A stretch of 64,000 nucleotides of DNA from the sequence record OX016465. One strand, 5' to 3'. How positions within the stretch are numbered: position 1 is the first letter of the stretch; the number at the start of each line of letters is the position of its first letter. This document shows, piece by piece, positions 6,677 to 64,000 of this stretch. The notes below the pieces were generated by a model. The model saw only the letters and a list, made by a program, of their open reading frames with translations. It had not been told where the DNA came from and searched no databases. This stretch comes from Escherichia phage vB_Eco_Tribble. The position numbers and the translations under genes were made by a program.

Positions 6677-7075
6677 ATGAAAACAGAATCTAGAGTAATT
6701 AATGGTAAGAAAGTAAATATCGTTCTGCTTGGGGCAAGAGATGGTATTAAGATGTCTATGAAGTTGGGTAAAATTGTTGTTCCAACCTTTGCACAGATGC
6801 TATCAAGTCTGACTGACAAGGATAAGAAAGAAGCTCCAATGGTTCCATTTAAAGAACTTGTTGAAGCTTGTTTTGACAGAATTGAAGAAATTAACCTTGA
6901 AGAGATGGCAACCCTGTTATTTCAAGGGGCAACTGTTGATGACTTCCCACTTAATATTGATACGTACTTCCAAGCAAACTACGGTGAATTTATTGATTAC
7001 CTAGCATTTGCGCTGGAGGCAAACTTCGGAAGTTTTTTCGAAGCAAGCATTTTCAAAAGCCTAACTTCTCAGTAA
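6677..7075 (+). CDS. Tail assembly chaperone (gpG-like)
   Basis: 132 aa ORF between tube and tape measure genes; candidate slippery heptamer near its 3' end. Confidence 0.5.
   Translation: MKTESRVINGKKVNIVLLGARDGIKMSMKLGKIVVPTFAQMLSSLTDKDKKEAPMVPFKELVEACFDRIEEINLEEMATLLFQGATVDDFPLNIDTYFQANYGEFIDYLAFALEANFGSFFEASIFKSLTSQ
7033..7039 (+). other. Candidate -1 programmed ribosomal frameshift site (T TTT TTC)
   Basis: Heptamer TTTTTTC in X XXY YYZ phasing relative to the 6677 frame; a -1 shift enters the 7078 frame with no intervening stop. Confidence 0.45.
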
Positions 7076-7077
7076 AC

Positions 7078-7316
7078 ATGGGTAATACTCTACAGACACC
7101 ACTGACTGATGCTGCTGTAGAGGCAACCTATGAAGAAGCAGACGAGATGAAATTTGTGCTTGCTATTTATGGTATGGAAGGGTGTAAAGAAACACTTGAC
7201 CAACTCTTTGCTATGACATTCTCTGATTTATTATCATTGAGACAATTTCTTGAGATTCAGAGGTCGTATAAAGAGGAAATTGCTTACAACGAACTTAGAA
7301 GAGCAGGAAAAATGTA

Positions 7317-7317
<1 letters not shown>
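7078..7317 (+). CDS. Frameshift extension of tail chaperone (gpGT-like C-terminal part)
   Basis: 79 aa ORF in the -1 frame relative to 6677..7075, immediately upstream of the tape measure gene. Confidence 0.4.
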
Positions 7318-15333
<8,016 letters not shown>

Positions 15334-50056: not shown

Positions 50057-50327
50057 AGAGAAGTGGGAGATTTTACCATTAGTCAGTGAAGGCGGTAATG
50101 GTTGTGAAATGTACATGATACGTGGTCATGTTCCAGAACCAATTGCACTTGAGATGGTAAACAACTTTACAGATGGCTCTTACAAAGACTTAGGGGAGCC
50201 AACTATAAAGCAGCAATGGGTAAAGCCTGTACCAGACAGCACAGGTAACTGTAGTGTACTTTATCACGTTGTAGACCCTGCAAAATGCAAATCTGCAATG
50301 GCAGTAACAAACGTAACTTTTGATTGA
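50049..50327 (+). CDS. Hypothetical protein
   Basis: 92 aa ORF immediately upstream of the Prs-like gene. Confidence 0.3.
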   Translation: MAKEKWEILPLVSEGGNGCEMYMIRGHVPEPIALEMVNNFTDGSYKDLGEPTIKQQWVKPVPDSTGNCSVLYHVVDPAKCKSAMAVTNVTFD

Positions 50328-51220
50328 GAGAGAAAACTATGAAAACTGTTATTGAAGCCGTCGTCACCGCACAAGAGAAATTCTTCCACACAGAAAAATT
50401 CAATATCATTCAATTTCCATCTGGAGAAATTGGTGGAAACTTCTCTGAAGATTTTGTTAAGTTTGCTGAGCGTAATGCTGGTAAGATTGATAATGTTATA
50501 TTTACTGTACAGGGGTATGACAAAGATACACTGTTTGCATTAGCTTTGGCTAAGGATGCCGTTGACAGTCTTGTTCCCCAGAAATCAGCGATGAAAACCG
50601 TTGTTTTCGGGTTCTTACCAAATGCTCGATATGACCGCCACATGTTCAAAGGTGATGCAGCAGCACTGAAAGTCTTTGCCAACCTAGTTAATGCAATGGG
50701 CTTTGATGCAGTATGTGCTCTTGACCCTCACAGTAATGTTGCAGAAAACTTATTTAAGTGCTTTCAGAGCATGAAGCAAAAAGATGTGGCAGTACACTTT
50801 GCAAGCGACCCACGCATTGATTACTTAGTAGCCCCAGATGCAGGTGCTTCTAAGAAGATTGCAGAGACTGCTAAAGAGGTGGATAAACCATATATCACAA
50901 TGTCTAAAGTGCGTAACCTTAAGACTGGTGAAATTACTGGTATGCGAATCCTTGATGATGTTGATTTGACAGATAAAACCGTCATGATTCTGGATGATAT
51001 CTGTGATGGTGGTCGAACCTTCGTAGAGGCAGCTAAACACCTACGTGAAGCGGGTGCAAAACGTGTGGAACTCTATGTAACTCATGGTATTTTCTCTAAA
51101 GGTGTTGAAAACTTACTTGACAATGGTATTGACCATATCTACACTACAAACACTTTAGGTGAAGCTAAAGACCGTGGCTTAACACATTACGCCCAAGTTA
51201 CTGTAGCAACCATTGATTGA
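50324..51220 (+). CDS. Ribose-phosphate pyrophosphokinase family protein (PRPP synthetase-like; possibly ADPR-PP synthetase of NARP1)
   Basis: Phosphoribosyltransferase-type motif VMILDDICDGGRTF; about 300 aa; immediately upstream of the NAMPT-like gene. Confidence 0.7.
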   Translation: MREKTMKTVIEAVVTAQEKFFHTEKFNIIQFPSGEIGGNFSEDFVKFAERNAGKIDNVIFTVQGYDKDTLFALALAKDAVDSLVPQKSAMKTVVFGFLPNARYDRHMFKGDAAALKVFANLVNAMGFDAVCALDPHSNVAENLFKCFQSMKQKDVAVHFASDPRIDYLVAPDAGASKKIAETAKEVDKPYITMSKVRNLKTGEITGMRILDDVDLTDKTVMILDDICDGGRTFVEAAKHLREAGAKRVELYVTHGIFSKGVENLLDNGIDHIYTTNTLGEAKDRGLTHYAQVTVATID

Positions 51221-51229
51221 AACTTTATA

Positions 51230-51250
51230 GGGGCTTGAAAGCCCCATTTT
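51230..51250 (+). terminator. Hairpin / weak terminator between the Prs-like and NAMPT-like genes
   Basis: GGGGCT-TGAA-AGCCCC followed by ATTTT. Confidence 0.35.
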
Positions 51251-51265
51251 GAGAGAGATTAAAAG

Positions 51266-53047
51266 ATGACTAAATCACTTTATGCAGTACCAGCAGGTTT
51301 AAACGCGGACGCTTACAAATCTGGCCATGTTTACCAGTACCCTAGTGCAACAGAATACTTAATGTTCAACCTGACACCACGTAGTGACAAATGGTTTAAC
51401 AGCCCCTTAGCAATTGATGGTGTAGTGGCTTTTGGTATTCAACGTTTTGTTAAAGATTACTTGATAGACCACTGGAACGCCACTTTCTTTGAACGTGATA
51501 AAAAAGAAGCAATTGACGAAATCTTAGAAGTCATGAATGGTGTTCTGGGTAAAGATGCTATCGGTCGAGAGCATTGGGAAGCACTTCACGACTTAGGTTA
51601 TCTACCAGTTGAAGTATACTCTGTAGAAGAAGGCACAGTTGTCCCGATGCGTGTCCCAATGATTGTCTTCCAGAACACTGTTTCAGGTTTCCATTGGGTA
51701 GCAGGTTATCTGGAAGACGCTTTCTCTGCTGAGATTTGGAAGGCTTGCACCATTGCAACTATTGCATTGCACTACAAACGTATCTGTAAGAAGTGGGCTG
51801 ACCTTACTTGCGACAACGACTTTCATTTACCTTATCAGTGCCATGACTTTGCTATGCGTGGTATGTCCGGCTTTACTGATGACGCATTTAATGCTGTAGG
51901 CCACTTAACCAGTTTTAAAGGGACTGACAGCTTCCCTGCTGTATACACAGCTAAACGAATCTATGGACAGTCTTACCCAATCTCTGATATTGGTAGTTCT
52001 GTACCAGCCACTGAACACTCTGTAATGTGTGCAAACATTGCTTGGGAAGGTGGTAATGAATTGATTGAAGAAGAAAGACGCTTTAAAGGTGAGTTACAAA
52101 CCTTCCGTCGCTTCTTAACAGAAACTTACCCAACTGGTATTGCAAGTATTGTTTCAGATACTTATAACTTCTGGAGAACTGTGTCAGAAATCTTACCAGC
52201 ACTTCGTAAAGAAATTATGGAACGTGATGGTAAGCTGGTAATTCGCCCTGACTCTGGAGACCCTGTACATATTGTCACGGGTTATAAAGCAATCCACTTA
52301 GAGTGTGCTAAGAAGGCTTATTACGAGCACCTAAGCAAGCTGGAAGCTAGTGACACAATGTTGAATGCTGTTATGAACATGAAGCTTGAAAACATCAACT
52401 ATGGAATTGCTGGATGGCTACTGTCAGAAGGCTACGAAATGGTTGTTGACAGAGAAGACTTTGAAGCTGCTGATACGGTGATGTTGAAAGATGCTTATAT
52501 GGTTGGTTCTGCAAACGTTGTAACACGTCCTGTAGCTGAAATTGATGGAGCTATTAAGACACTGTACAACATCTTTGGTGGAACTATTAACTCTAAAGGG
52601 TTTAAGGTACTGGATGAGCATATCGGCCTTATCTATGGTGACTCTATCACACTGGAACGTGCAAACGAAATACTGAAGCGTCTGTATGAAATGGGTTTTG
52701 CAAGCTCTAACGTAGTGTTTGGCGTAGGCTCTTACACTTACCAGTACATGACTCGTGACACCTTTGCATTTGCTGTTAAAGCAACTCTTGCAAGCATTGG
52801 TGGTAAAGAGATTATGCTTGCAAAAGACCCTAAAACAGATAGTGGTGTTAAGAAGTCTGCTTTTGGTGGTGTAGCACCTATGTGGGATGGTGATAAGTTG
52901 AAAGCTGTAGATGGCTATGGATTCCAGAGCTTTGCAGATGCACTTGAACATCCAGCTTGTGCTTTACGTTTAGTCTTTAGTGACTCTGAGCAGTTCGGTT
53001 ACACAACTCTTGGTGATATTCGAAACAATATTGACAAGCAGCTTTAA
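51266..53047 (+). CDS. Nicotinamide phosphoribosyltransferase family protein (NadV/NAMPT-like; possibly Namat of NARP1)
   Basis: 593 aa; N-terminal …NADAYKSGHVYQYP… resembles the NAMPT TDSYK-type region; adjacent to the Prs-like gene. Confidence 0.7.
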   Translation: MTKSLYAVPAGLNADAYKSGHVYQYPSATEYLMFNLTPRSDKWFNSPLAIDGVVAFGIQRFVKDYLIDHWNATFFERDKKEAIDEILEVMNGVLGKDAIGREHWEALHDLGYLPVEVYSVEEGTVVPMRVPMIVFQNTVSGFHWVAGYLEDAFSAEIWKACTIATIALHYKRICKKWADLTCDNDFHLPYQCHDFAMRGMSGFTDDAFNAVGHLTSFKGTDSFPAVYTAKRIYGQSYPISDIGSSVPATEHSVMCANIAWEGGNELIEEERRFKGELQTFRRFLTETYPTGIASIVSDTYNFWRTVSEILPALRKEIMERDGKLVIRPDSGDPVHIVTGYKAIHLECAKKAYYEHLSKLEASDTMLNAVMNMKLENINYGIAGWLLSEGYEMVVDREDFEAADTVMLKDAYMVGSANVVTRPVAEIDGAIKTLYNIFGGTINSKGFKVLDEHIGLIYGDSITLERANEILKRLYEMGFASSNVVFGVGSYTYQYMTRDTFAFAVKATLASIGGKEIMLAKDPKTDSGVKKSAFGGVAPMWDGDKLKAVDGYGFQSFADALEHPACALRLVFSDSEQFGYTTLGDIRNNIDKQL

Positions 53048-53060
53048 AAGTATATGATAA

Positions 53061-53088
53061 GAGGCTCCTACGGGAGCCTTTTTAATTT
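53061..53088 (+). terminator. Intrinsic terminator
   Basis: AGGCTCC-TACG-GGAGCCT followed by TTTTAATTT. Confidence 0.6.
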
Positions 53089-53100
53089 CTGGAGAAGATT

Positions 53101-53445
53101 ATGGATAGCCTTTCTATATGGTTTAACAAGAAACCTGTACAACCTAAATACTTACAAGTTGCCTATACAGACATCCTTGAAGTTCTCGGTAAGGAAAAGT
53201 TTGAAAAGTTCTGTGAAGGTATCTATAATCACCATTGTCAGTTTGCTACGAAAGAGGGTATGTTTGTCATAGAACAGTTCTTTGGCAGAGACCCAGATGA
53301 CTATGAAGAGATTAGCTTTGTAATGAAATACATGATAGAGTATATTGAGAATCGTGGATTCGAAGTTAATCCTGAATTTTATGAACATGAGGGTGTACCT
53401 TTAGCAAAAGGTTTTGATGGTATACTTGTTAACTGGACTTGGTAA
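53101..53445 (+). CDS. Hypothetical protein
   Basis: 114 aa acidic ORF. Confidence 0.3.
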   Translation: MDSLSIWFNKKPVQPKYLQVAYTDILEVLGKEKFEKFCEGIYNHHCQFATKEGMFVIEQFFGRDPDDYEEISFVMKYMIEYIENRGFEVNPEFYEHEGVPLAKGFDGILVNWTW

Positions 53446-53786
53446 AAGTTATGAAAATCAAAGAGATGAACATCAACGTTGTCCTAGAAGAACGTTGGGA
53501 AAACATTAAGAAACCTGAAGATGGTAAAAAGTTTCTTAACAAAATTTTAGTAGCAGCTAAAGAAGAACTTACGGGTAAGGTTGCAGCAGCAATCACAATA
53601 AAAGTCTGTGTAAAAGGTCTTCCACAACATCACCAATTTGCTCTTGATGAGTTTAAAGAAAACTTCTACAATCCAAATAAACAGATGCTTGAAAGTAACT
53701 TTGCAGTGTCTACAAGTATCGTCCATGACAGAAGCTTTATCCTTTACAAAAATATGAGAGGTGAGTCATGCAAGCATATTGGATAG
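53439..53786 (+). CDS. Hypothetical protein
   Basis: 115 aa ORF; start uncertain. Confidence 0.25.
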   Translation: MVKVMKIKEMNINVVLEERWENIKKPEDGKKFLNKILVAAKEELTGKVAAAITIKVCVKGLPQHHQFALDEFKENFYNPNKQMLESNFAVSTSIVHDRSFILYKNMRGESCKHIG

Positions 53787-53944
53787 AAATTTTACTGTCA
53801 CTTGGTAGTGTAGCAGTGTTCGTTTACCTTCTTTGCAAGTACTATGCAGAGTACAAGAAGTGTGATTACTGCAATGGGGAAGGGTATACAAGAGCAGGTT
53901 GTTGCCCTATGTGTGGCGGTTCTGGTAAAATGTTTAATAAGTGA
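53768..53944 (+). CDS. Small membrane-anchored zinc-finger protein (58 aa), not in the ORF track
   Basis: ATG 53768; N-terminal hydrophobic helix (WIEILLSLGSVAVFVYLL) and CxxCxGxG…CxxCxGxG motif (CDYCNGEG…CPMCGGSG). Confidence 0.35.
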   Translation: MQAYWIEILLSLGSVAVFVYLLCKYYAEYKKCDYCNGEGYTRAGCCPMCGGSGKMFNK

Positions 53945-53972
53945 TTTAACAGTAAACTAAGAGGAAAGTATT

Positions 53973-56339
53973 ATGCGCATGGTAAACGACCACGCAGAAG
54001 TGATTAAGAGTTCAACTTCTTTGGAGACATCTCAAGCACAGATTACAATGACACCTGAAATGTTCAGCCTTCTGAGTTCTGGTGTATACACATTCAAAGA
54101 AAGGGCAGTGATTCGTGAACTGTCATGTAATGCAGTAGATGCTCAGAAAGAAGCTGGAAAAGAGAACATCCCATTCCATGTGCATTTACCTACTCGATTT
54201 GAGCCTTACTTTGAAGTCCGTGACTTTGGAACTGGTTTAACCCATGACAAAGTAATGAGTTTGTACCTGAACTACGGGGCTTCTACGAAGAACGACTCTA
54301 ATGATTACATTGGTGCAATGGGTATCGGCTCAAAGTCACCGTTTGCAATTGCTCAGTCATTCACGGTGTCTAGCTATGTTGATGGTGTTGTTAATAAATA
54401 CTCTGTTTACCTTGAGAATGGCATCCCTCAAGTGACTAAGCTTACTACTAACCCAACAAATGAACCTAATGGCTTAGCTGTACGTGTGGCAGTTGCTGAC
54501 CACCGTATTTCAAAGTTCTTTGAAGAGGCTGGTCACGTATACTCATACTTTGCTGTAAAGCCAGAAAGTAATATTGTATATGATGACGTGTTAGCAGATA
54601 TGAACGTCATTGCTCGTGAAGAAGGTGTTTATGACGCTATGATTCATAAGCAAAGCTGGCGTTCTAGTGGTAACAGGACAGAGTTTAATGTGGTGATGGG
54701 TAATATTGCCTATCCAGTCAATATGGAAGCATTACTTGGTGATGATTTCTTCAAAGTCTTGCCAGAGTTTTTCCGTAGGAGCGTAGACCTTGTAAACATC
54801 TACATGCCTATTGGTTCAGTTGCTATTGCAGCTTCTCGTGAAGCATTGCAGATGAATGACACGACAAAAAATGTTATCATTGAGGCTACCAAAAAGATAA
54901 CTGAAGCAATTACAAAGGATGTTATCAAGAAAGTTAATAGCCAACCTACACTCATGGATGCTGCACAGGCTTACGCAGAGTTACGTTTGAACTCACGAGA
55001 AATGTTTAATGCTGTGTGTCCAAAGCTAGAGTGGGGAGGTGTTAAGCTTGATTCTCTGGAAGAAGAATTGCTAAACATTCGTCGTGGAATTATCTACGCA
55101 GAAGACGGCTCAGTCATTTATGAACGTGACGGTAAAGGTAATATTAAGGTTGATAGGAACGGGGACAATATCCCTAAAGTGGACTACCTATACAATCCAG
55201 TTGCTTATGTCAAGTTCAACTCTTTAGAGAGTAAGATTCGTGCAACAGCACTTTCCTACACTCAAGAGGCAAGTATGTTCAATATCTTTGGTGCAATGCG
55301 TAAAAGCCAAATTGAACAGTTTTTGTTCGTGATTAATGACCGTCGCAATAAAAACGGTACTGAGAAGACTGTAGGACGCAATCAGATTCTGCGTGGTGCA
55401 TGTCGAGACTATGCCAGCGAGTCAAGTCTGTTTCACAGATACAATGGTATTGTCTTTGTATTCCCTAATGAGAAAGAGCTAGATGATTTAATCAATCTGC
55501 ACAAACTTGATAAAAGCTTGTTAAAGATTGTGAAAATGTCTGATAAGGAACATCATTATCAGCGTAAAGAAGCTGTAAGAGGTGTTGTAAAACTTTGGAA
55601 AGCTGTTCCAGCAGAAGGTGTAGCTTCCTATAAAGAGGTTTCAGAGGACTTTGATACAATTGAAGAACCTCAGCTTTATATTAAGGCAGTCGGTGACACA
55701 GTTGATGGTGAATGTTTTTGCTCATCTCCAGAAGATGTAGCTAAGTCAGTTGCCAATGTCATTGGAAAGACAGTCTATGTTTTCCGAAAAGCAAATTGGA
55801 AAAAGATACCAGAAGACTGGATTGAAGTAGATGAGAAGCTCTTGAACGACAGCTTAACTGATGTTCACTGGATTAATCATAACAGGTATATGACACGTAT
55901 CTATATGAATGGTGTCCTCGACCTTACAAGCAGTTGGATTATTGCCAGAAACTTTACATTCAATAACAGGAAGATTTCTCGTGGCTATTGCTATTCACGA
56001 GACACAAACAAAACTATCTTCTTAGAAGGTAATGAAGATGCTGTTGAGGCAATGTTTGGTAAAATCCAATACGTTGCTGCACCGTTTGCATACACTTACA
56101 CTATTAGTAGATTGCAAACTTTGAAAGAATGCCTTGACAATGATACAAAGCTGTACAAGAAAATTAAGAAAGCTGGTGACCGCATGGTCATTAAGGTGAC
56201 AAACTACCTTTCAAAAAGAAAACAAGAAAACTTCTTGCTTTCTCATTTAGATTGGAATAAAGTGTCCCCCATCGAAGTGAGTAAGTTCTTAGGCTTTGAT
56301 GTAAAATGTGTTCCAGAAGGTACAACAGTTTACGATTAA
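53973..56339 (+). CDS. rIIA: rIIA-like protein (N-terminal GHKL ATPase domain)
   Basis: Bergerat-fold motifs: ELSCNAVDA, DFGTGLT, GAMGIGSKS; 788 aa; followed by an rIIB-like gene. Confidence 0.6.
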   Translation: MRMVNDHAEVIKSSTSLETSQAQITMTPEMFSLLSSGVYTFKERAVIRELSCNAVDAQKEAGKENIPFHVHLPTRFEPYFEVRDFGTGLTHDKVMSLYLNYGASTKNDSNDYIGAMGIGSKSPFAIAQSFTVSSYVDGVVNKYSVYLENGIPQVTKLTTNPTNEPNGLAVRVAVADHRISKFFEEAGHVYSYFAVKPESNIVYDDVLADMNVIAREEGVYDAMIHKQSWRSSGNRTEFNVVMGNIAYPVNMEALLGDDFFKVLPEFFRRSVDLVNIYMPIGSVAIAASREALQMNDTTKNVIIEATKKITEAITKDVIKKVNSQPTLMDAAQAYAELRLNSREMFNAVCPKLEWGGVKLDSLEEELLNIRRGIIYAEDGSVIYERDGKGNIKVDRNGDNIPKVDYLYNPVAYVKFNSLESKIRATALSYTQEASMFNIFGAMRKSQIEQFLFVINDRRNKNGTEKTVGRNQILRGACRDYASESSLFHRYNGIVFVFPNEKELDDLINLHKLDKSLLKIVKMSDKEHHYQRKEAVRGVVKLWKAVPAEGVASYKEVSEDFDTIEEPQLYIKAVGDTVDGECFCSSPEDVAKSVANVIGKTVYVFRKANWKKIPEDWIEVDEKLLNDSLTDVHWINHNRYMTRIYMNGVLDLTSSWIIARNFTFNNRKISRGYCYSRDTNKTIFLEGNEDAVEAMFGKIQYVAAPFAYTYTISRLQTLKECLDNDTKLYKKIKKAGDRMVIKVTNYLSKRKQENFLLSHLDWNKVSPIEVSKFLGFDVKCVPEGTTVYD

Positions 56340-56344
56340 AGTGT

Positions 56345-56374
56345 TTGACAAGGGGCTTTGAAGCCCCTTAGAAT
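56345..56374 (+). promoter_or_regulatory. Candidate promoter TTGACA-N18-TAGAAT with a GC hairpin in the spacer, upstream of the rIIB-like gene
   Basis: TTGACA 56345-56350; spacer AGGGGCTTTGAAGCCCC is a perfect hairpin; TAGAAT 56369-56374. May alternatively be a terminator for rIIA. Confidence 0.35.
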
Positions 56375-56418
56375 AACCTCACAAAATGATTTATTAACTA
56401 ACAAGAGAGAGTAATAAG

Positions 56419-57528
56419 ATGACTACTAAAACTAAAGCACAGATTGACGCAGAAATTTACAAACTGGTTAAAGAAGGTAAGCTGACTAAAACAGCTATTG
56501 CACAGAAATTTAATACTTCAACCCGTTCAGTTGGTCGTGCTGTAGAGCGTCATGAAGCAACCTTAAAAGGTAATAAGAAGGCGACTTCTACACCAGCTAC
56601 GAAGACTTTGAAACAAGTTGCTAAGACTTTTAAAAAGAAATCTGGCAAACAAGTTGAAAAGGTCGTTAAAGAGTCTGTACAGAAAGCTCCAGTAAATAAA
56701 CTGCATGAAGCTATGCAGAAAGATGACAAGATAGAGTACATGATTACTGGTGACTCTGTAATTATGACTTACGGTTCAGAATCTGAAATTGTTGAGTCTA
56801 CTCATCCGAACTATCAAGAGATTGTAGTTCATGTTGTGAAAGGTGAGTTTAAGAAAGCCTTTGAACTGATGAACATTCGTAAGTCTATCGAGAACTTCAC
56901 TCAGGGTGCTATCACAATCAAAGGTGACAAGCTGTTCTACGGTGCTGTTGAGATGCGTTCTACTCTGGTTGACCGTATTCTTCACATGATGAAGACTGGG
57001 GATAAAGGCTTTGAACGCCTTGTGATGTTCTTCGAAAAACTGATGGAAAACCCATCTAAAGACTCTGTAGAACAACTTTGGGGCTTCGTATCTCACCTTG
57101 ATGTTGAAATTGATGAAGAAGGCTACATCATTGGTTGGAAGAAAGTCTCTACTCGTGAAGGCAAGCTGGTTGATTCTCACACCTACAGAGTGCCTAATGA
57201 TTTGGGCAACGTTGTAGAAATGCCACGTTGGATGGTTGATAATAACCGTAACGTGACTTGCTCTCAAGGTCTTCACGTTGGTGCTTGGGATTATGTTCGT
57301 TGTTTCTCAGGTGATACAATTCTGAAGGTTCGTGTCCATCCACGAGATGTTGTATCTGTTCCAACTGATTACAACGATATGAAGATGCGCTCATCTCGTT
57401 ATGAAGTTGCAGCAATCGTTGATAATCAACGTAAAGTGTTGAAAGCATGGGATGGCAAGACTGAAGCTTTACATGTCATCGTTGGTACTGCTGGTGAACT
57501 CATCTCTCAGCGTAAACGTGAAATCTAA
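56419..57528 (+). CDS. rIIB: rIIB-like protein
   Basis: C-terminal region (…CSQGLHVGAWDYVRCFSGDTILKVRVHPRDVVSVPTDYNDMKMRSSRYEV…) resembles the T4 rIIB C-terminus as recalled. Confidence 0.65.
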   Translation: MTTKTKAQIDAEIYKLVKEGKLTKTAIAQKFNTSTRSVGRAVERHEATLKGNKKATSTPATKTLKQVAKTFKKKSGKQVEKVVKESVQKAPVNKLHEAMQKDDKIEYMITGDSVIMTYGSESEIVESTHPNYQEIVVHVVKGEFKKAFELMNIRKSIENFTQGAITIKGDKLFYGAVEMRSTLVDRILHMMKTGDKGFERLVMFFEKLMENPSKDSVEQLWGFVSHLDVEIDEEGYIIGWKKVSTREGKLVDSHTYRVPNDLGNVVEMPRWMVDNNRNVTCSQGLHVGAWDYVRCFSGDTILKVRVHPRDVVSVPTDYNDMKMRSSRYEVAAIVDNQRKVLKAWDGKTEALHVIVGTAGELISQRKREI

Positions 57529-57544
57529 TAAGTAATTTCTTAAA

Positions 57545-57570
57545 AGGCTGCTTCGGCGGCCTTTTTTATT
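57545..57570 (+). terminator. Intrinsic terminator after the rIIB-like gene
   Basis: GGCTGC-TTCG-GCGGCC hairpin (one G-U pair) followed by TTTTTTATTT. Confidence 0.55.
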
Positions 57571-57597
57571 TGTATTTTGTGCAGAGTGCTGTATAAT
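57569..57597 (+). promoter_or_regulatory. Candidate promoter with perfect TATAAT upstream of the transglycosylase gene
   Basis: TATAAT at 57592-57597 with weak -35 TTTGTA 17 nt upstream; contains TTGTGCAGAG, related to the iteron core at 61.7-61.9 kb. Confidence 0.35.
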
Positions 57598-57628
57598 TGT
57601 TGTCACGATAAACTAAACAGGAGAACCA

Positions 57629-58177
57629 ATGAAGAAATTGATTCTAGGTTTGTGCTTAATGTTTACAGCACACTTATCTTATGCAGTTGACTGCCCAGAG
57701 CTATCAATTAGCCAAAAAGTAAACATGTTAAAAGCTTACCAGTATGGTGAGAACAACATGGGTAAAGGTTGGGGTATCACTCTAGCTGCTATAGCCTTAC
57801 AAGAGTCAGAGTTAGGTCTGAAGGTAGAGAATAAAAAGACACATGATTATGGTATTTTCCAGAATCACTTGAAGACTGTTGTAAAGCGTAACAAAATTAG
57901 TCCTAATGTGGCTAAAAAGAAACTCTTAAAAGACTTTAACTATGCTGCGAAGGAAACGCACAAAGAACTTGAGTTTTGGACAAAGGTGCATGGTCAGCCA
58001 AAGTCAAAGAAGACTTTACAAAAAGTTTTAGCATCATATAATGCTGGGTATTCGTACAGAATCCCTAAAGCTAAGAAATATTCTCAAGATGTCTATAACA
58101 ACATGAAAGTTATTGCTCAATGTGAATTTGCAACAAACATTTCTAAGGTAAACCATGAAAAAATTAAAAAAGTCTGA
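57629..58177 (+). CDS. Secreted lytic transglycosylase-like protein (SLT domain; candidate endolysin)
   Basis: Signal peptide MKKLILGLCLMFTAHLSYA; SLT-type motifs AIALQESELG (Glu-Ser), GIFQ, SYNAGYS. Confidence 0.5.
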   Translation: MKKLILGLCLMFTAHLSYAVDCPELSISQKVNMLKAYQYGENNMGKGWGITLAAIALQESELGLKVENKKTHDYGIFQNHLKTVVKRNKISPNVAKKKLLKDFNYAAKETHKELEFWTKVHGQPKSKKTLQKVLASYNAGYSYRIPKAKKYSQDVYNNMKVIAQCEFATNISKVNHEKIKKV

Positions 58178-58730
58178 TGAAGTACTGTGTCATGCTTACG
58201 ACTTACATCCTCATGAGTTAGGTCTTGATTCCTGTGTATGTACTCCAGAACAGTGTAGGGATTTTGAAGACACCGCAAGAGAAGTCGTATGTTCACTCGA
58301 AGAGTTCCACACATCAGAGCCAATTGTGAATGTTGTAGATAAAGAGACTGGACAAACTATAGGTGTAAGTCGTGATAGCTTAGTCATAGTCAATAAAGAC
58401 CTTGTAGAAAAAGGTAACCTTATCTTAGCAGACATTGATGGTGTTCTTACAAATTTTAATCACGAAGATTGCTCAACGGAATTGATTGATGGGTCATTTT
58501 CACAGTACACTAATTTGCTTGACTCTGTAAGAGCAAAACCAACGTATGTTTTCAACATCATTGACGCAATTGCTAATCATGCCGCCATTGGACTCTTGAC
58601 AGCGAGAGGTGAATCTCAGAGAATACCTACTGAGATGTTTTTAAGGCATTACATAGAGCATGATTACATGCTTTTTATGCGTGGTTTTGGGACTAACTCT
58701 ATAAGTGCAGAAAGTTTGAAAGTGAGATGA
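58155..58730 (+). CDS. Hypothetical protein with possible HAD-like DxDG motif
   Basis: LILADIDGVLTNF resembles HAD motif I; start uncertain. Confidence 0.25.
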   Translation: MKKLKKSDEVLCHAYDLHPHELGLDSCVCTPEQCRDFEDTAREVVCSLEEFHTSEPIVNVVDKETGQTIGVSRDSLVIVNKDLVEKGNLILADIDGVLTNFNHEDCSTELIDGSFSQYTNLLDSVRAKPTYVFNIIDAIANHAAIGLLTARGESQRIPTEMFLRHYIEHDYMLFMRGFGTNSISAESLKVR

Positions 58731-58859
58731 TTCAGTCTTGCATTCTGCCTTACTTTGATATAGTATGTTTTATAGAAGATACAGAGAAGAATGTGCAGAA
58801 GGTGAACAGAATCCTTCCACACATTAAAACTATGTTAGTAAAACATTGAGAGAAAACTT

Positions 58860-59324
58860 ATGAACAATATCATTACGGTAGCACTGGACGTTACAGCAAA
58901 CAAATCTGAAGTAGTTCGTAACATTATCAAAAGCAACTTTGAGGGTAAAATCTTCCGTGCTGTCAATGTAAAAGCAGACGGTAACATCCGAGAGTATCGT
59001 GCTCTTCTGAATGTTAAGAAACACGTCAAAGGTGCTGGTTCAACGACTGCACACAAAGAAAACCTGATGACTATCTATGATATGGGTATGGCTTCAGAGT
59101 TAGGTGCTGAAGGTATCGTTAAAGAAGGTGCTCCGTATCGCTCTTTCAATCTGGAAACTGCTCTTATGCTTTCCTTCACAAGTGGTTCTAAAACAACTAC
59201 TTACCTCTTTACTGATGCTGCAACGGTATCTGCTATCAAGGATAGCACTGTCAAAGCTGGGGTAGCTGCTGCTGCAAAAGCTTCTTCGATGGCTGCAAAT
59301 GTCCTTGCTAAAGTCCTCGGTTAA
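58860..59324 (+). CDS. Hypothetical protein
   Basis: 154 aa; Ala-rich C-terminus; followed by a terminator. Confidence 0.3.
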   Translation: MNNIITVALDVTANKSEVVRNIIKSNFEGKIFRAVNVKADGNIREYRALLNVKKHVKGAGSTTAHKENLMTIYDMGMASELGAEGIVKEGAPYRSFNLETALMLSFTSGSKTTTYLFTDAATVSAIKDSTVKAGVAAAAKASSMAANVLAKVLG

Positions 59325-59335
59325 GGTTAAGATAC

Positions 59336-59358
59336 AGGCTCCTTCGGGAGCCTTTTTC
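59336..59358 (+). terminator. Intrinsic terminator
   Basis: AGGCTCC-TTCG-GGAGCCT followed by TTTTCATTT. Confidence 0.6.
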
Positions 59359-59376
59359 ATTTCAGGAGATTGTTAA

Positions 59377-59724
59377 ATGACATTTAAAGAGTTCTGTCAA
59401 GCTACTTTCATAATTGTTTTCTTAGTTGGGGCAGGTGTCTGGGGAGGATACTCTTACAGAGACTATCAAGTTGCTGAAACTGAGCTAAACAATCAAAAGC
59501 TCATAAGTGTTGCTAAAGATGCTTATCAGGAAGGATTAGTAACATTGAGCACCAATTACAAAAATGATTTGAAGGATGTGCTTGCTAAGAATAAGCATAC
59601 AAAAGAGGTACTAACATATGAAAAAACTAAGCCAGAGTTTTATAATGTTTGTGTTACTGATAACTATGTCAGGGTGTTCAACGAACAAAGTGAGCAGTAC
59701 ATTCAAAAACTCCCAAGTAAGTGA
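59377..59724 (+). CDS. Putative i-spanin (Rz-like)
   Basis: N-terminal TM helix (FIIVFLVGAGVWGGY) followed by a coiled-coil-like periplasmic domain; overlapping lipoprotein ORF in another frame. Confidence 0.45.
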   Translation: MTFKEFCQATFIIVFLVGAGVWGGYSYRDYQVAETELNNQKLISVAKDAYQEGLVTLSTNYKNDLKDVLAKNKHTKEVLTYEKTKPEFYNVCVTDNYVRVFNEQSEQYIQKLPSK

Positions 59725-59887
59725 GAGTGATAAGTACACTCAAGAAGAATCACGGTATATCATCAAAGGCAACACAGGCAGTGATGTAGCAGCAGCCCTT
59801 GAGTTCTATCGTGACGGCTTTTACCAGTGCACAATCAAAGCTAACAACCTTATTGACATGATTTTATTAGGGAATAAGCAGCAATGA
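59618..59887 (+). CDS. Putative o-spanin (Rz1-like outer-membrane lipoprotein)
   Basis: Lipoprotein signal MKKLSQSFIMFVLLITMSGC with lipobox Cys; starts inside the Rz-like gene in a different frame. Confidence 0.45.
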   Translation: MKKLSQSFIMFVLLITMSGCSTNKVSSTFKNSQVSESDKYTQEESRYIIKGNTGSDVAAALEFYRDGFYQCTIKANNLIDMILLGNKQQ

Positions 59888-60153
59888 CAGAGAATGAAGA
59901 TACTTTCTATGTAGAAGGTTACTTACTGTTACCACGACCAAAAGAAACTTATATGCGAATTGACTTCATACCAACCATTATGGATAATGTGATGTGTCAT
60001 ATCTTTATGCAAGGTGTCACAGCACAGCTTAAGCATGTCGGTAAAGACTGCAAAATAAAGGTTGACACTCATCCAGAAATCAAAGAGAATCACTACACAT
60101 GGTTCTTACCAGACTCTAAAGAAATCTTAGCAGTTCTCAAAACGAGGAAGTAA
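59884..60153 (+). CDS. Hypothetical protein
   Basis: 89 aa ORF translationally coupled to the upstream gene. Confidence 0.3.
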   Translation: MTENEDTFYVEGYLLLPRPKETYMRIDFIPTIMDNVMCHIFMQGVTAQLKHVGKDCKIKVDTHPEIKENHYTWFLPDSKEILAVLKTRK

Positions 60154-60155
60154 CT

Positions 60156-60482
60156 ATGCAGATTAATGGAAGAGACTTTGTAGCCGTTTACTACGAGAAA
60201 GGTAAAGAGGTTGGTGTAGCACAAGTAACTTATGGCAATGGTAAGTGGCTGTATGGAACAATCGCAGTAGTAGGAACAAGAAGTGATACAAAAACTTTTA
60301 AAGATTGTGTTGACCTTCTTGAAGAATCCATCCAGAATCATTGGTGTCTGATATGGATGACTGATAACGAAGTGATAGAACGTTTCAAAAAGATTAATAT
60401 CAACATTGACAGTATTGAGCATGTTGATTTATATGAGCTAACTGAGAAGGTAAACTATGAAAGTAATACTAGCCAGAGATAA
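60156..60482 (+). CDS. Hypothetical protein
   Basis: 108 aa ORF. Confidence 0.3.
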   Translation: MQINGRDFVAVYYEKGKEVGVAQVTYGNGKWLYGTIAVVGTRSDTKTFKDCVDLLEESIQNHWCLIWMTDNEVIERFKKININIDSIEHVDLYELTEKVNYESNTSQR

Positions 60483-60684
60483 AAAGACACGAAAACTTAT
60501 CAGGTCAGCAGTGTTCATTGGACGAAATGAGGTCATCCCATTTACAGCAAATGATGTGATAGCTTACAGGAAAAACTTAGTATTCACTGACTGCTTACGT
60601 GGCTTCATCTCTGAACCATTGGAAGACTTTAAAAGTCGTTGTGGTAAAGGTATTATCATTCAAGAGGCAATTATTCATGGCTGA
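60457..60684 (+). CDS. Hypothetical protein
   Basis: 75 aa ORF. Confidence 0.25.
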   Translation: MKVILARDKKTRKLIRSAVFIGRNEVIPFTANDVIAYRKNLVFTDCLRGFISEPLEDFKSRCGKGIIIQEAIIHG

Positions 60685-60877
60685 CTTCTGCAAAGATTGT
60701 TCTATCGAAATGTTCGGACGTGATACAGGTGACTTAAAAGGTCTCATCACTGAAGATGACTTTAAGGCTGGCTATGCAATGCCAGTAATCTGTGAAGGTT
60801 GTGGGTGCATCTGGGTAGACCACGAAGGACAGCGTGTAAAACCTTCAGAAGATAAAGAATCTTGGGAGAGATGTTAA
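60677..60877 (+). CDS. Small Cys-rich protein
   Basis: Start at ATG 60677; CKDC…CEGCGC cysteine cluster. Confidence 0.3.
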   Translation: MADFCKDCSIEMFGRDTGDLKGLITEDDFKAGYAMPVICEGCGCIWVDHEGQRVKPSEDKESWERC

Positions 60878-61663
60878 ATGGGTATTGTAAAAATCATCAA
60901 AGGTGATATCTTTGAAGCATTTGATAAAGGTAAATTTGATATCATTGGTCATGGTTGCAACTGTATGAATTTCATGGGTGCAGGTATTGCAGCAACTATT
61001 TCTAAGCGTTATCCAAAAGTGTATGATACTGACACAGAAGTTTACCTGTTTGCAGGTGGCATTCGTCACAAACCCTGTGAAAATTTACTAGGTAATTTAT
61101 CTGTAGCACGTTTAAAACAAGGTCGTATAGCTAACCTTTACACCCAACTTCATACTGGTAAAGATGCACGATACAGTGCTTTAGAGTCATCTTTGAAACA
61201 GCTTAACAGATACTGTGAAGTCAATCAGTTGAAGAAAGTTGGTTTTCCTATGATTGGTGCAGGTATTGGTGGACTTGACCCTCAAGCTGTCACAGTTATC
61301 ATCAATCAGGTGATGAAGAGTGTGGATGTTTATCTGTATGTCTATGAAGGAGAGATGTACCACAAGTTACGCTCAGGTTGGAAGAACTACTGTGAACCAG
61401 AATACTTTGCAGGTGTAGTTGTGTTCACGGATAATGCAGTTACCCTCTTCAGACGAAGAAAAGGTAAGATACATCAAAGTAACCCTCCGGTTGAAAAGAT
61501 GTCTCTAAGTAACGCTCTAGTTACCCACCTGTCGAAGAGCAATCATAGAATTGCCGTGACATTTGGTAGTGATGCAGACACCTACATCTATGCAAGAACT
61601 GATGAGGATATCGAGACAGTTTTCTCTTCGCCAGAAGTTACCTTCTTAGACGCAAAGAACTAA
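60878..61663 (+). CDS. Macrodomain protein (TARG1/DarG-like ADP-ribosyl hydrolase fold) with C-terminal extension
   Basis: GDIFEAFDKGKFDIIGHGCNCMNFMGAGIAATISKRYP resembles the TARG1-type motif …AHCISEDCRMGAGIA… as recalled; second Gly-rich loop FPMIGAGIGGLDP. Confidence 0.55.
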   Translation: MGIVKIIKGDIFEAFDKGKFDIIGHGCNCMNFMGAGIAATISKRYPKVYDTDTEVYLFAGGIRHKPCENLLGNLSVARLKQGRIANLYTQLHTGKDARYSALESSLKQLNRYCEVNQLKKVGFPMIGAGIGGLDPQAVTVIINQVMKSVDVYLYVYEGEMYHKLRSGWKNYCEPEYFAGVVVFTDNAVTLFRRRKGKIHQSNPPVEKMSLSNALVTHLSKSNHRIAVTFGSDADTYIYARTDEDIETVFSSPEVTFLDAKN

Positions 61664-61710
61664 GAAACTTCGTAGGATATTCACAATAGACTAAGCCTTT
61701 CTTATCTGGT

Positions 61711-61915
61711 AAATTTTTCAGGTAAGGAGGGCTTTTTCATTTCAGAATTGTGCAGGTATATTTCTATAGAGAAATCTGTAGAGTGAATTTTGAACTCCAA
61801 AGAGAAAATTCATTTTCAAACTGTGCAGGTAATCTCCAAAGAGCTTTTTCATTTTCAAAACGTGCAGAGAAAAATCAGGTCGGGCAAGAAAAATCATTTG
61901 AGAATTGTGCAGGTA
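61711..61915. repeat. Array of 4-5 direct repeats (iteron-like), core TTTTCATTTTCA(A/G)AANTGTGCAGGTA
   Basis: Copies at 61733-61758, 61805-61832, 61845-61870, 61889-61915 and a partial at 61711-61727, in a 510-bp noncoding region. Confidence 0.6.
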
Positions 61916-62092
61916 GGTGGGTGTAGGTGGGGCTGTCGCCATTTCTCACAAGGCTACCACATCTGAAAATAAAAGTCAAAAGAAAAATTTGTAGCGGATT
62001 GAAAAATAATTCTTGATTGTAGTTCTGTTTTGTGGTAATCGCGCGCACCCGTTTCATTACATTTTTGCCAAAAATATTTTTAAAAATTTTCA

Positions 62093-62121
62093 TTGACTCC
62101 TTGAACGGGTTTTTATAGTAT
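62093..62121 (+). promoter_or_regulatory. Candidate sigma70-type promoter TTGACT-N17-TAGTAT upstream of the small-gene cassette
   Basis: TTGACT 62093-62098, 17-nt spacer, TAGTAT 62116-62121; about 55 nt upstream of ATG 62175. Confidence 0.45.
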
Positions 62122-62174
62122 TTGCATCAGACGGGGCGACAAGCCCGACAGCCTTAAACTAGGAGAACTTAAAA

Positions 62175-62381
62175 ATGCTATACGGTCGTGAATTGATGGT
62201 TACAACTAACGTTAACACAAAGGTAAAACGTTTTTACATGCAAATCTGTGGCGTATGGTCTAGAATATCAGAAGCTGACTATTGCAACTATGTAGAAACA
62301 GCAATCAACTCTGATTGCTACCTTACAAGAAATACAAGAAAGCACATAAGACAGACAGCAGTTTATTACTACGATATCTAA
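62175..62381 (+). CDS. Hypothetical small protein (cassette gene 1)
   Basis: 68 aa; GGAGAACTTAAAA leader before ATG. Confidence 0.4.
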   Translation: MLYGRELMVTTNVNTKVKRFYMQICGVWSRISEADYCNYVETAINSDCYLTRNTRKHIRQTAVYYYDI

Positions 62382-62472
62382 TAAAGTACTTTACAGGGGG
62401 CTTAAAAGTTGATATCTTAAGCCCCAGATAAAGAGCTTTACCACATTAACCCTTAAACTAGGAGATTCAGAA
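62379..62472 (+). repeat. Conserved intergenic repeat A (stop codon - TTTACA - GC hairpin - AGATAAAGAGCTTTACC - RBS)
   Basis: TAATAAAGTACTTTACAGGGGGCTTAAAAGTTGATATCTTAAGCCCCAGATAAAGAGCTTTACCAC…GGAGA; 9-bp stem GGGGCTTAA/TTAAGCCCC. Confidence 0.6.
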
Positions 62473-62856
62473 ATGGCTTATCGTGCACCGAAATTCATCA
62501 ACAAAGACAACTTTCGCAACGTACTGGAGAAGTCACTTGATGAGAATTTCAAAGGCAATAAAATTGTTGTTCACTCATTTAATTTTAAATATGACATCAA
62601 CGGGAATAAAATCAACCATTACACGGCAACCATGATAGATGGTACACTCTCAAGCGAAAAAACCATACTGAATGCACTTGCAGGACGTGGAAAAAACCTG
62701 ATAAAATGCAATAAGAGACGTTATCAGGGTGGCGCATATGGTTATGATGATGCCATTTATCATCTTGAAAATATGGGCTATTCAGTAGAAAAAGTTGGAG
62801 TGCCGCAAATCATTGGTAGCGATGGTTATATAACTATCTTCAAAATTAACAAATAA
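62473..62856 (+). CDS. Hypothetical protein (cassette gene 2)
   Basis: 127 aa; preceded by repeat A and a GGAGA Shine-Dalgarno. Confidence 0.4.
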   Translation: MAYRAPKFINKDNFRNVLEKSLDENFKGNKIVVHSFNFKYDINGNKINHYTATMIDGTLSSEKTILNALAGRGKNLIKCNKRRYQGGAYGYDDAIYHLENMGYSVEKVGVPQIIGSDGYITIFKINK

Positions 62857-62942
62857 AGTACTTTACAGGGGGCTTAAAAGTTGATATCTTAAGCCCCAGA
62901 TAAAGAGCTTTACCACTAAATCCTAAATTGGAGAACTTAAAA
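62854..62942 (+). repeat. Conserved intergenic repeat B
   Basis: Near-identical to repeat A (same hairpin and flanks). Confidence 0.6.
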
Positions 62943-63233
62943 ATGGCTATTATCAAAAACGTTGTAATTACTGCAAAAACTCGTGATGATGCTCGCATTA
63001 TGGCTAAAAAGTTATGCGGTAAAGTTGTTGACAACGGAAAACAGTCTGCTGTAAGGTGGGGCGTGAAGGTTGATAAACAGTTGAAGTTAAAAAATTCACC
63101 AATAAACCTTTTTACATGTGTAAACACTATCGGGAAGACAAATATATACACGAAAAAGGCATATATTAGACGCGTAGCCTTAACCTCCCCCATTCGTACA
63201 ATGAGAGGTCATGCAAAGCTGAAAATTAACTAA
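62943..63233 (+). CDS. Hypothetical basic protein (cassette gene 3)
   Basis: Start reassigned to ATG 62943 (MAIIKNVV…) downstream of GGAGA; 96 aa. Confidence 0.4.
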   Translation: MAIIKNVVITAKTRDDARIMAKKLCGKVVDNGKQSAVRWGVKVDKQLKLKNSPINLFTCVNTIGKTNIYTKKAYIRRVALTSPIRTMRGHAKLKIN

Positions 63234-63321
63234 TAAAGTACTTTACAGGGGGCTTATAGTTCGATAAAGTAAGCCCCAGATAAAGAGCTTTACCACTAAA
63301 TCCTAAATTGGAGATTCTAAA
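63231..63321 (+). repeat. Conserved intergenic repeat C (same stem, different loop)
   Basis: Flanks identical to repeat B; hairpin GGGGCTTA-TAGTTCGATAAAG-TAAGCCCC keeps the stem while the loop differs. Confidence 0.6.
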
Positions 63322-63618
63322 ATGAAATTATCAAATAAAGTTCGTGAAAATCTGAGCAAGTTACTTAATAAAATTGATTTCATTGAAACATCAAGAAATA
63401 GCCACGACGTTATGGAATGGTTACACGGAAAAATTAAAGGACGTCGTGTAGTGATTTGCTTGTGGAATAGTTGCAGGGAGTATAAAAACCCTGTATTGCA
63501 AGTCAATATTTACGATGATACTTTTAAAAGTCCAGTAAAGTCTAAAAGTGACTTATTAGAATCCTATGAGATAACTGTAAGCGGCAAAGTATCACGTAAA
63601 GAGGAATCACCATGCTAA
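63322..63618 (+). CDS. Hypothetical protein (cassette gene 4)
   Basis: 98 aa; preceded by repeat C. Confidence 0.4.
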   Translation: MKLSNKVRENLSKLLNKIDFIETSRNSHDVMEWLHGKIKGRRVVICLWNSCREYKNPVLQVNIYDDTFKSPVKSKSDLLESYEITVSGKVSRKEESPC

Positions 63619-63944
63619 TGACTGGCATCACTGCAATTATTGCCATTTTCGCGCTCTATAAGGCATATAAAGCCTATAACCTAGCAAATAAGGCAATCAC
63701 GCAACAGGTCAATAATAGCCTTGTAATGAGCTTTCTGGAGCGTTTAAGTGATGAACAAATAAAACGGTTAGAAATGAGTTTCAGATTTCAATCGAGAACT
63801 TATCAAATCAGCGACATCTTTAAAGATGATTTTCAGTTAGTCGATGATTATAACTCTCTGATAAATGCTTTAAATATCAGTGACTTAAAAGACTACTACG
63901 CTGTAATTGTTCAAGAACTGAGCAAACGAAAAAATTTATCTTGA
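63612..63944 (+). CDS. Hypothetical protein with N-terminal hydrophobic segment (cassette gene 5)
   Basis: 110 aa; N-terminal ITAIIAIFALY hydrophobic stretch; overlaps the upstream stop. Confidence 0.35.
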   Translation: MLMTGITAIIAIFALYKAYKAYNLANKAITQQVNNSLVMSFLERLSDEQIKRLEMSFRFQSRTYQISDIFKDDFQLVDDYNSLINALNISDLKDYYAVIVQELSKRKNLS

Positions 63945-64000
63945 TTTTGATTTTAAAAACAAGTAAATTACTAATCAACGGGGAGGGAATGACCTTCCCC

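Follow-up and report, generated by a model that had tools for sequence, protein, structure and literature searches.

Functions have only recently been assigned to phage macrodomains, AdfM against DarTG2 and Adpp together with NARP1 against aRES, and the locus described here raises the question of which activity its own macrodomain carries. The locus belongs to Escherichia phage vB_Eco_Tribble (OX016465), of which a stretch of 64,000 nucleotides, here called the window, was analysed. The gene in question, hereafter the macro gene, lies on the plus strand at 60878..61663 and comprises an ATG start, 261 codons, and a TAA stop, giving a product of 261 amino acids (aa). It had been picked out from the sequence as encoding a TARG1/DarG-like macrodomain protein, and the motifs quoted in that original prediction, GDIFEAF, IIGHGCNCMNFMGAGIA, and FPMIGAGIGGL, are all found in the translation of this open reading frame (ORF). 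Homology supports assignment of the product as a Gln-type macrodomain hydrolase of the ALC1/TARG1 class that belongs to the phage AdfM/Adpp family and has an accessory counter-defence role. Its most likely activity, which we put forward tentatively on the combined analysis, would be the removal of thymidine-linked ADP-ribosyl groups (ADPr) from DarT2-modified phage DNA, making the protein the Felix O1-lineage counterpart of T4 AdfM.

The macrodomain occupies residues 1 to 157 (60878..61348, plus strand) and falls in the ALC1/TARG1/DarG/Poa1p class with a Gln-type active site. A hidden Markov model search against macrodomain families matched Pfam Macro (PF01661) to residues 25 to 141 with 32.4 bits over a cutoff of 22 (E=9.7e-8), covering positions 2 to 117 of the 118 in the model. 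The best solved relatives by sequence (HMMER, PDB sequences) were TARG1/OARD1 (E=2e-6), TTHA0132, and DarG, and DarG was the top domain-level match in both NCBIfam and PADLOC. A full-length AlphaFold2 model, built on 25 sequences, was obtained with a predicted local distance difference test score (pLDDT) of 87 and a predicted template-modelling score of 0.86. Its N-terminal part has the alpha/beta/alpha macro fold with both Gly-rich ligand loops, MGAGIA and GAGIGG, and was matched by Foldseek at probability 1.0 to TARG1 (template-modelling (TM) score 0.84), DarG (0.76-0.78), and Poa1p (0.73). The N-terminal TARG1/DarG-like macrodomain that had been predicted is thus borne out by the family search as well as by structure prediction and comparison. 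The macrodomain is basic, with a pI of 9.0.

The further description of the motifs as a TARG1-type signature held only in part, because the macrodomain motifs are present but the catalytic residues of TARG1 are not. In HMMER and MAFFT alignments, the column of the TARG1 catalytic Lys84 is occupied by Gln90 and that of Asp125 by a Gly in GAGIGGL; with both residues replaced, covalent Lys catalysis of the TARG1 type was rejected. Gln90 also stands at the column of the DarG catalytic residue K80 (T. aquaticus numbering), Lys80 of DarG and Lys84 of TARG1 being equivalent (PMC9411070). The alignments place the active site in Loop 1, the substrate-binding region H25-G-C-N28-C-M-N-F-M-G-A-G-I-A38 (60950..60991), in the motif N86-L-Y-T-Q90 followed by L-H-T-G-K95-D-A-R98 (61133..61171), and in Loop 2, the phosphate-binding loop P124-M-I-G-A-G-I-G-G-L-D134 (61247..61279), all on the plus strand. 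H25 corresponds to H23 of Poa1p and H32 of TARG1, and N28 to N22 of DarG, N27 of SCO6735, and N23 of PhiKZ AdfM, the roles of the Loop 1 residues being taken from PMC13309987 and PMC9411070. Across 46 non-redundant phage relatives, T4-type Tk.4 included, little or no variation is seen in His25, Asn28, N-[LA]-Y-T-Q, and the two Gly loops. The TGK-DAR loop after Gln90 is restricted to a clade of two-domain proteins that includes the window protein, and GGLD there stands for the GGDW of single-domain relatives. Nine residues separate Gln90 from a conserved Tyr, as in TARG1 and T4-type Tk.4, compared with about 15 in Bt_1257. In some relatives (loci L033, L034, and L041) His25 is replaced by Gln, giving I-[AG]-Q-G-C-N-C.

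A Gln at this position has a precedent in SCO6735 of Streptomyces, in which Gln85 takes the structural place of Lys80/Lys84 and which hydrolyses the thymidine-ADPr DNA made by DarT; its Q85A variant is dead and its N27S variant nearly dead (PMC9411070). Because SCO6735 is active with Gln85, Gln at the position of the catalytic Lys is compatible with hydrolysis of thymidine-linked ADPr on DNA. The K95 and R98 residues in the loop after Gln90 resemble the DNA-binding Lys89/Lys94 loop of SCO6735 (loop described in PMC9411070).

Among phage relatives, T4 Tk.4, now AdfM (anti-DarT factor Macrodomain), was the one gene that HIDEN-SEQ identified as conditionally essential on a DarTG2 host, and clean removal of tk.4 sensitises T4 to DarTG2 (bioRxiv 10.1101/2025.11.20.689424). 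PhiKZ gp104, an AdfM with a Lys-type macrodomain, strips ADPr from DarT2-modified DNA in vitro (PMC13309987). The Adpp of Vibrio phage Gary converts ADP-ribose-1''-phosphate (ADPR-1''-P), the product of the RES-domain defence aRES, to ADP-ribose (ADPR) that feeds NARP1, and aRES is defeated; the Adpp gene lies between those of Adps and Namat, and all three genes are required against aRES (bioRxiv 10.64898/2026.01.28.702374). Phage Chazly21 has the same Adps-macro-Namat operon layout, and its gp177, 98% identical to Gary Adpp, was used as a proxy for it in pairwise comparison. The window protein was 36% identical to T4-type Tk.4 over 160 aa (85 bits, E=3e-26) and 29% identical to the Adpp type (59 bits, E=2e-16), in which a 7-residue insertion follows the Gln. 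T4 Tk.4 (L001:1498-1974) and the Adpp type (L003:4001-4474) are both Gln-type and 39% identical to each other (85 bits); judged by sequence, the two published functions, anti-DarTG2 and ADPR-1''-P phosphatase, belong to one protein family. Since T4 AdfM and Gary Adpp show such functions, the homology supports the anti-defence role, by de-ADP-ribosylation or ADP-ribose processing, that the original prediction had proposed. PDB ranking was rejected as a discriminator within this family: the window protein, T4 Tk.4, and the Adpp proxy match the same set (TARG1, Bt_1257, SCO6735, DarG, and Poa1p) in different order, with Bt_1257 best for T4 Tk.4.

The window phage also encodes NARP1, which was discovered in genes 79-80 of phage Bas63. 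The Adps-like gene (50324..51220) and the Namat-like gene (51266..53047), both on the plus strand, were recognised by their 96.6% and 98.1% identity, respectively, to those Bas63 genes. The pair lies 7.8-10.5 kb upstream of the macro gene on the same strand, with about 15 genes between Namat and the macro gene; the candidate NAD+ pair that had been placed about 8 kb away is therefore real, the Namat-like gene ending at 53047 and both genes being >96% identical to their Bas63 counterparts. Felix-type Namat was found in 257 records and the Felix-type macro protein likewise in 257, and the NARP1-macro synteny is conserved across the lineage in those Felix O1-like contigs with enough flank. In the metagenomic contig L006, the segment corresponding to window positions 50345-53450 (Adps-Namat) is deleted and the macro gene is intact. 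Salmonella phage FM4b (PP068124.1) has Adps and Namat remnants of 34 and 55 codons at 81106-81353 and an intact macro gene of 261 codons at 6927-7712. From NARP1 to macro codon 47, two Felixounavirus contigs (L031/L032) match the window at 94-96% identity; between about 61019 and 61849 there is no homology, and the macro protein they encode (P0009 type, 259 aa) shares only 39% identity with that of the window. This is a recombinational allele replacement with its breakpoint inside the macro gene. The deletions in L006 and FM4b and the allele swap in L031/L032 argue that the macro gene is not strictly tied to NARP1, and they are compatible with cooperation between the two. Only a handful of the approximately 50 nearest non-Felix relatives have an Adps- or Namat-like gene at 10 kb or less. 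In a few non-Felix relatives (L062, L068, L075/L076, and L081), an Adps- or Namat/NadV-like gene lies 0.4-4 kb from a macro gene that lacks the Gary-type insertion after the Gln; because of these, the NARP1-adjacent macrodomains are neither one clade nor marked by one motif.

The distribution and variation of the gene are those of an accessory function. The window belongs to a Felixounavirus and is 92-94% identical in nucleotide sequence to Bas63/JohannRWettstein, warpig, and others; the IMG/VR contig L004 encodes an identical macro protein within DNA that is 98.4% identical over 50879-64000. Full-length homologues occur in records of Felix O1-like phages only, 257 in all. In roughly 2,500 more records the match covers just residues 3-160, at 30-40% identity; these represent the T4 Tk.4 family, which occurs in T4-like, rV5-like, PAK_P1-like, Vibrio, and other phages. 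Among 20 unique close orthologs, the ratio of nonsynonymous to synonymous substitution rates (dN/dS) was 0.04-0.07 for the macrodomain and 0.17 for residues 158-261, and this purifying selection on both parts indicates that both encode functional protein. The macro gene is the ortholog of bas63_0095 (gene 95) of Bas63 and belongs to phrog_335 (E=1e-114); databases call the lineage gene "putative phosphatase" (Bas63) or "macro domain protein", and "unknown" in Felix O1. The PhageMaP fitness scores of Bas63 gene 95 are positive, about +0.6 to +1.1, and the gene is thus non-essential. The PhageMaP text names it as a counter to 0 of the 33 systems of the Gao panel, a panel without DarTG and aRES. 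A dispensable accessory gene of the conflict type is supported by this non-essentiality in Bas63 and by the allele replacement in L031/L032.

In the mechanism that we propose, the macrodomain would bind ADP-ribose and cleave the bond at the 1'' carbon of the distal ribose to release free ADP-ribose. Catalysis would proceed as in SCO6735, with Asn28 positioning Gln90, Gln90 orienting the distal ribose, and water attacking. The likeliest physiological substrate, which we infer for the window phage, would be thymidine-linked ADPr laid down on phage single-stranded DNA (ssDNA) by DarT2-type toxins, and the outcome would be restored replication on DarTG2 hosts. ADPR-1''-P might be dephosphorylated too, being the same kind of 1''-adduct, and the ADPR released from either substrate could be used by the phage's own NARP1. 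The C-terminal domain may act as a non-catalytic targeting or partner-binding module.

We favour thymidine-ADPr as the substrate because T4-type Tk.4/AdfM is the closest characterised phage homologue (36% identity, the same N-L-Y-T-Q, and the same Gln-to-Tyr spacing), because the macro gene stands outside the NARP1 operon and is kept in the NARP1-deleted L006 and FM4b, and because of the DarG matches at the top of NCBIfam and PADLOC, the basic macrodomain, the K95/R98 loop, and the accessory-gene hallmarks. Several points weigh against it. The enzymatic activity of T4 AdfM was only inferred (bioRxiv 10.1101/2025.11.20.689424), and the biochemically proven AdfM, PhiKZ gp104, is Lys-type, unlike the Gln-type window protein. 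T4 AdfM and Gary Adpp share 39% identity and thus resemble one another no less than they resemble the window protein; the 36% versus 29% identity of the latter to these types therefore cannot assign its activity, and phylogeny was rejected as a separator of AdfM and Adpp because the neighbour-joining tree was star-like except for the two-domain clade. The near-perfect co-occurrence of the macro gene with NARP1 (257 versus 257 records) fits an Adpp function equally well, the macro gene may not yet have had time to decay since the NARP1 deletions in L006 and FM4b, and the role given to the C-terminal domain is purely conjectural. No study that challenges Felix O1-like phages with DarTG or aRES was found in the literature.

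A strong second reading, possible and compatible with action on DarT2-modified DNA, is that the protein serves chiefly as an ADPR-1''-P phosphatase acting in trans for the unlinked NARP1. In this scheme aRES would cleave NAD+ to nicotinamide and ADPR-1''-P, which Adps cannot use, the macrodomain would convert the latter to ADPR, and Adps and Namat would rebuild NAD+. The result would be a NARP1-AP pathway with its third gene 8-10 kb distant from the first two. The window protein is of the same family as the purified Gary Adpp (29%, E=2e-16), which is required with Adps and Namat against aRES; its phage carries a bona fide NARP1; and macro gene and Namat co-occur (257 versus 257) with synteny kept on one strand. 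Poa1p is among the fold matches, "phosphatase" is a long-standing database name, and the His, Lys, and Arg in the loop after Gln90 could bind phosphate. The macro gene is nevertheless about 15 genes from NARP1, whereas the published association window was +/-2 genes (bioRxiv 10.64898/2026.01.28.702374), and its product has no 7-residue insertion after the Gln of the Gary type. NARP1-deleted relatives (L006 and FM4b) keep the macro gene intact, L031/L032 exchanged the macro allele while their NARP1 stayed about 95-97% identical, and a small-molecule phosphatase has no obvious need of an extra, faster-evolving domain. It is rather unlikely, though conceivable, that a single dual-mode factor erases both DarT2-thymidine and aRES ADPR-1''-P adducts into NARP1, with the C-terminal domain, a new fold, binding a defence protein (for example DarT2 or the RES enzyme) or ssDNA. 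If so, two defence outputs would be turned back into NAD+ via channelled ADPR, and the C-terminal domain would be functionally analogous, not homologous, to the DarT-binding domain of DarG.

The substrate might instead be another ADPr conjugate or signal, such as an ADP-ribosylated host or phage protein or RNA, O-acetyl-ADPR, or the gcADPR or His-ADPR of Thoeris-type systems, with the C-terminal domain conferring specificity. We regard this as unlikely. The ALC1/TARG1 class is promiscuous, with SCO6735 and TARG1 acting on protein as well as DNA (for SCO6735, PMC9411070), ADPR signals derived from TIR are predicted targets of macro domains (PMC9503650), and the clade-specific TGK-DAR and GGLD loops together with the extra domain suggest altered specificity; such a role has, however, been shown for no homologue in the phage macrodomain family, gene 95 was reported as a counter to none of the 33 Gao-panel systems, and no ADP-ribosyltransferase (ART), sirtuin, KptA, or 2H partner is annotated in Bas63 or was found among the neighbours. 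A phage-internal ADP-ribosylation partner was rejected on the same kind of evidence, ART, sirtuin, KptA, 2H, and NADAR proteins not being annotated in Bas63. Still less probable is a non-catalytic role, either as an ADPr binder (sponge) or as a stoichiometric inhibitor of a defence protein that is contacted through the C-terminal domain. The Lys/Asp dyad is absent, the dead Q85A variant of SCO6735 still inhibits DarT by interaction (PMC9411070), DarG binds DarT through its second domain, and the C-terminal domain evolves faster than the macrodomain. Against such a role, the (near-)invariance of H25, N28, Q90, and the Gly loops and the dN/dS of 0.04-0.07 are as one would expect of an active site, Gln-type enzymes (SCO6735 and Gary Adpp) are active, and the C-terminal domain is unlike the C-terminal half of DarG. 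RNA repair or metabolic housekeeping, in which the protein would clear Tpt1/KptA-made ADPR-1''-P after RNA ligation as yeast Poa1p does, seems very improbable. It draws on the Poa1p-like fold and on polynucleotide kinase (Pnk), which is encoded at 58155..58730, 2 kb upstream of the macro gene. Pnk is the only such function annotated in Bas63, where RNA ligase, KptA/Tpt1, and 2H phosphodiesterase are missing from the annotation, and dispensability with allele replacement is typical of conflict genes. T4-type Pnk/ligase repair is not known to make 2'-phosphate junctions, which also counts against an RNA-repair role.

The C-terminal domain spans residues 158-261 (104 aa; 61349..61660, plus strand) and is predicted to form one helix, six beta-strands, and a short helix. 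The original prediction had left it as about 100 aa of unknown function, and it stands as such: the domain had no Pfam match, matched only its own family in PHROGs, and gave no significant match in fold searches, in which BFVD returned only the SUSP2 ortholog. A search profile made from ten sequences retrieved, from 1.84 billion representatives, only the domain's own family and repeat-inflated artefacts; the matches rejected for this reason were a YDG/MBG adhesin, a retrotransposon polyprotein, a PB1-repeat plant protein, and a short tandem-repeat protein. Two weak tblastn matches (H99 and H100, E about 0.1) were not reproduced in the window and were also rejected. No similarity was seen to the DarT-binding C-terminal half of DarG. 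Among 85 loci examined the domain was never a separate ORF and was always fused to the macrodomain, and neither the rest of the window nor the genes beside single-domain macro genes yielded a paralog of it. The domain occurs only in Felix O1-like phages, where it evolves 2.5- to 4-fold faster than the macrodomain does. Conservation falls mainly on Pro, Gly, Tyr, and hydrophobic residues, as would suit a module with a structural or binding role better than a second enzyme. Modelled alone it reached a pLDDT of 75 (medium confidence), and from the higher confidence within the full-length model the domain is predicted to pack against the macrodomain. Other C-terminal extensions occur among the relatives: the 260-aa proteins of L033/L034 have one that the Felix-type C-terminal-domain profile misses, P0019 carries a PF20274 domain, and the proteins of L053/L061 are about 245-249 aa long.

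Around the macro gene, direct reading of the sequence shows a Shine-Dalgarno-like GGGAGAG (60864..60870, plus strand) 7 nt 5' of the ATG, and the ATG adjoins the TAA (60875-60877) of the upstream ORF in TAAATG. A terminator-like hairpin of 17 pairs followed by a T-run (61693..61744, plus strand, with the hairpin at 61693-61734) lies 3' of the macro gene, which thus closes a long rightward gene block. The upstream ORF (60677-60877) encodes 66 aa of phrog_2210 (function unknown), and its paired Cys motifs, FCKDC and CEGCGC, suggest a zinc ribbon; translational coupling between this ORF and the macro gene is possible. The ORFs flanking the macro gene (127 aa or less) had no Pfam match and matched only PHROGs of unknown function. 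Just past the terminator, at 61728-61912, five copies of a 28-34 nt repeat are spaced 26-47 nt apart, end in ...TTTTCA(A/G)AA(C/T)TGTGCAG, and overlap small reverse-strand ORFs annotated in Bas63 (bas63_0096/0097); they may be a regulatory array rather than coding sequence. A 101-nt intergenic cassette occurs three times farther downstream (62370-62470, 62842-62942, and 63222-63322), each copy 5' of small ORFs and the copies 77-89% identical. Each has a promoter-like site with TTTACA and 17-nt spacing, and at least the first two have a hairpin (TAAAGTACTTTACAGGGGGCTTAA / TTAAGCCCC...). They recall the mobile promoter-early stem-loop cassettes known from T4-type phages.

Two features are new when compared with the published proteins: a two-domain architecture that includes the orphan C-terminal domain, and a NARP1 that co-occurs but is unlinked. 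The 39% identity of AdfM and Adpp raises the question of whether one enzyme does both jobs, and this lineage, with its unlinked macro gene and NARP1 and its natural NARP1-less variants, offers a clean system for asking about bifunctionality and about add-on domains. If NARP1-AP works with an unlinked phosphatase, its reported 15% prevalence is an underestimate. Felix O1-like phages, a group to which the tractable BASEL phage Bas63 belongs, have wide use in the biocontrol and typing of Salmonella and E. coli, and answers would improve prediction of the defence systems that limit therapeutic Felix O1-like phages.

Set beside known systems, the window protein shares with DarG the macrodomain class, the conserved Asn22 (as N28), and the fold (TM 0.76-0.78). 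Unlike it, DarG and PhiKZ AdfM have a catalytic Lys (K80/K78) at the position of the Gln, the PhiKZ Asn23 corresponding to N28, and DarG has a DarT-binding, ssDNA-mimic C-terminal domain and an adjacent darT, neither of which is present in the window. A bona fide DarG or toxin-antitoxin module was accordingly rejected: NF048014 scored 53 bits against a cutoff of 250 and matched over model positions 2-153 of 338, the C-terminal half of DarG is missing, and no darT is found among the flanking ORFs. TARG1 is the best solved relative by both sequence and fold, and H32 of TARG1 and H23 of Poa1p are conserved as H25, but TARG1 and Poa1p are eukaryotic housekeeping or repair enzymes rather than viral counter-defence proteins. 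SCO6735 and its close homologue Bt_1257 (motif "NMIGQ") likewise lack the Lys/Asp dyad and have, where the catalytic Lys would be, a Gln that an Asn supports (here Q90 and N28). They differ in being bacterial and in having their own "mobile loop", about 5 residues longer than in DarG/TARG1 and missing from the window protein, and the sequence match of the latter to 5e3b is weak (E=0.2). Gary Adpp is also Gln-type (N-V-Y-G-Q), and both phages encode Adps and Namat; Adpp, however, has 158 aa in one domain, carries 7 additional residues after the Gln, and is encoded inside the NARP1 operon, whereas the window gene lies 7.8 kb from Namat and encodes the additional C-terminal domain. T4 AdfM is a single domain of 159 aa, to which the window protein adds the 104-aa C-terminal domain, K95/R98, and GGLD in place of GGDW; T4 has no NARP1 beside the gene, and the anti-DarTG2 phenotype has been shown for T4 only. 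The two proteins share H-G-C-N-C, M-G-x-G-[IV]-A, N-L-Y-T-Q, the Gln-to-Tyr spacing, and the G-x-G-I-x-G-G loop, and both are encoded by non-essential accessory genes of virulent enterobacterial myoviruses.

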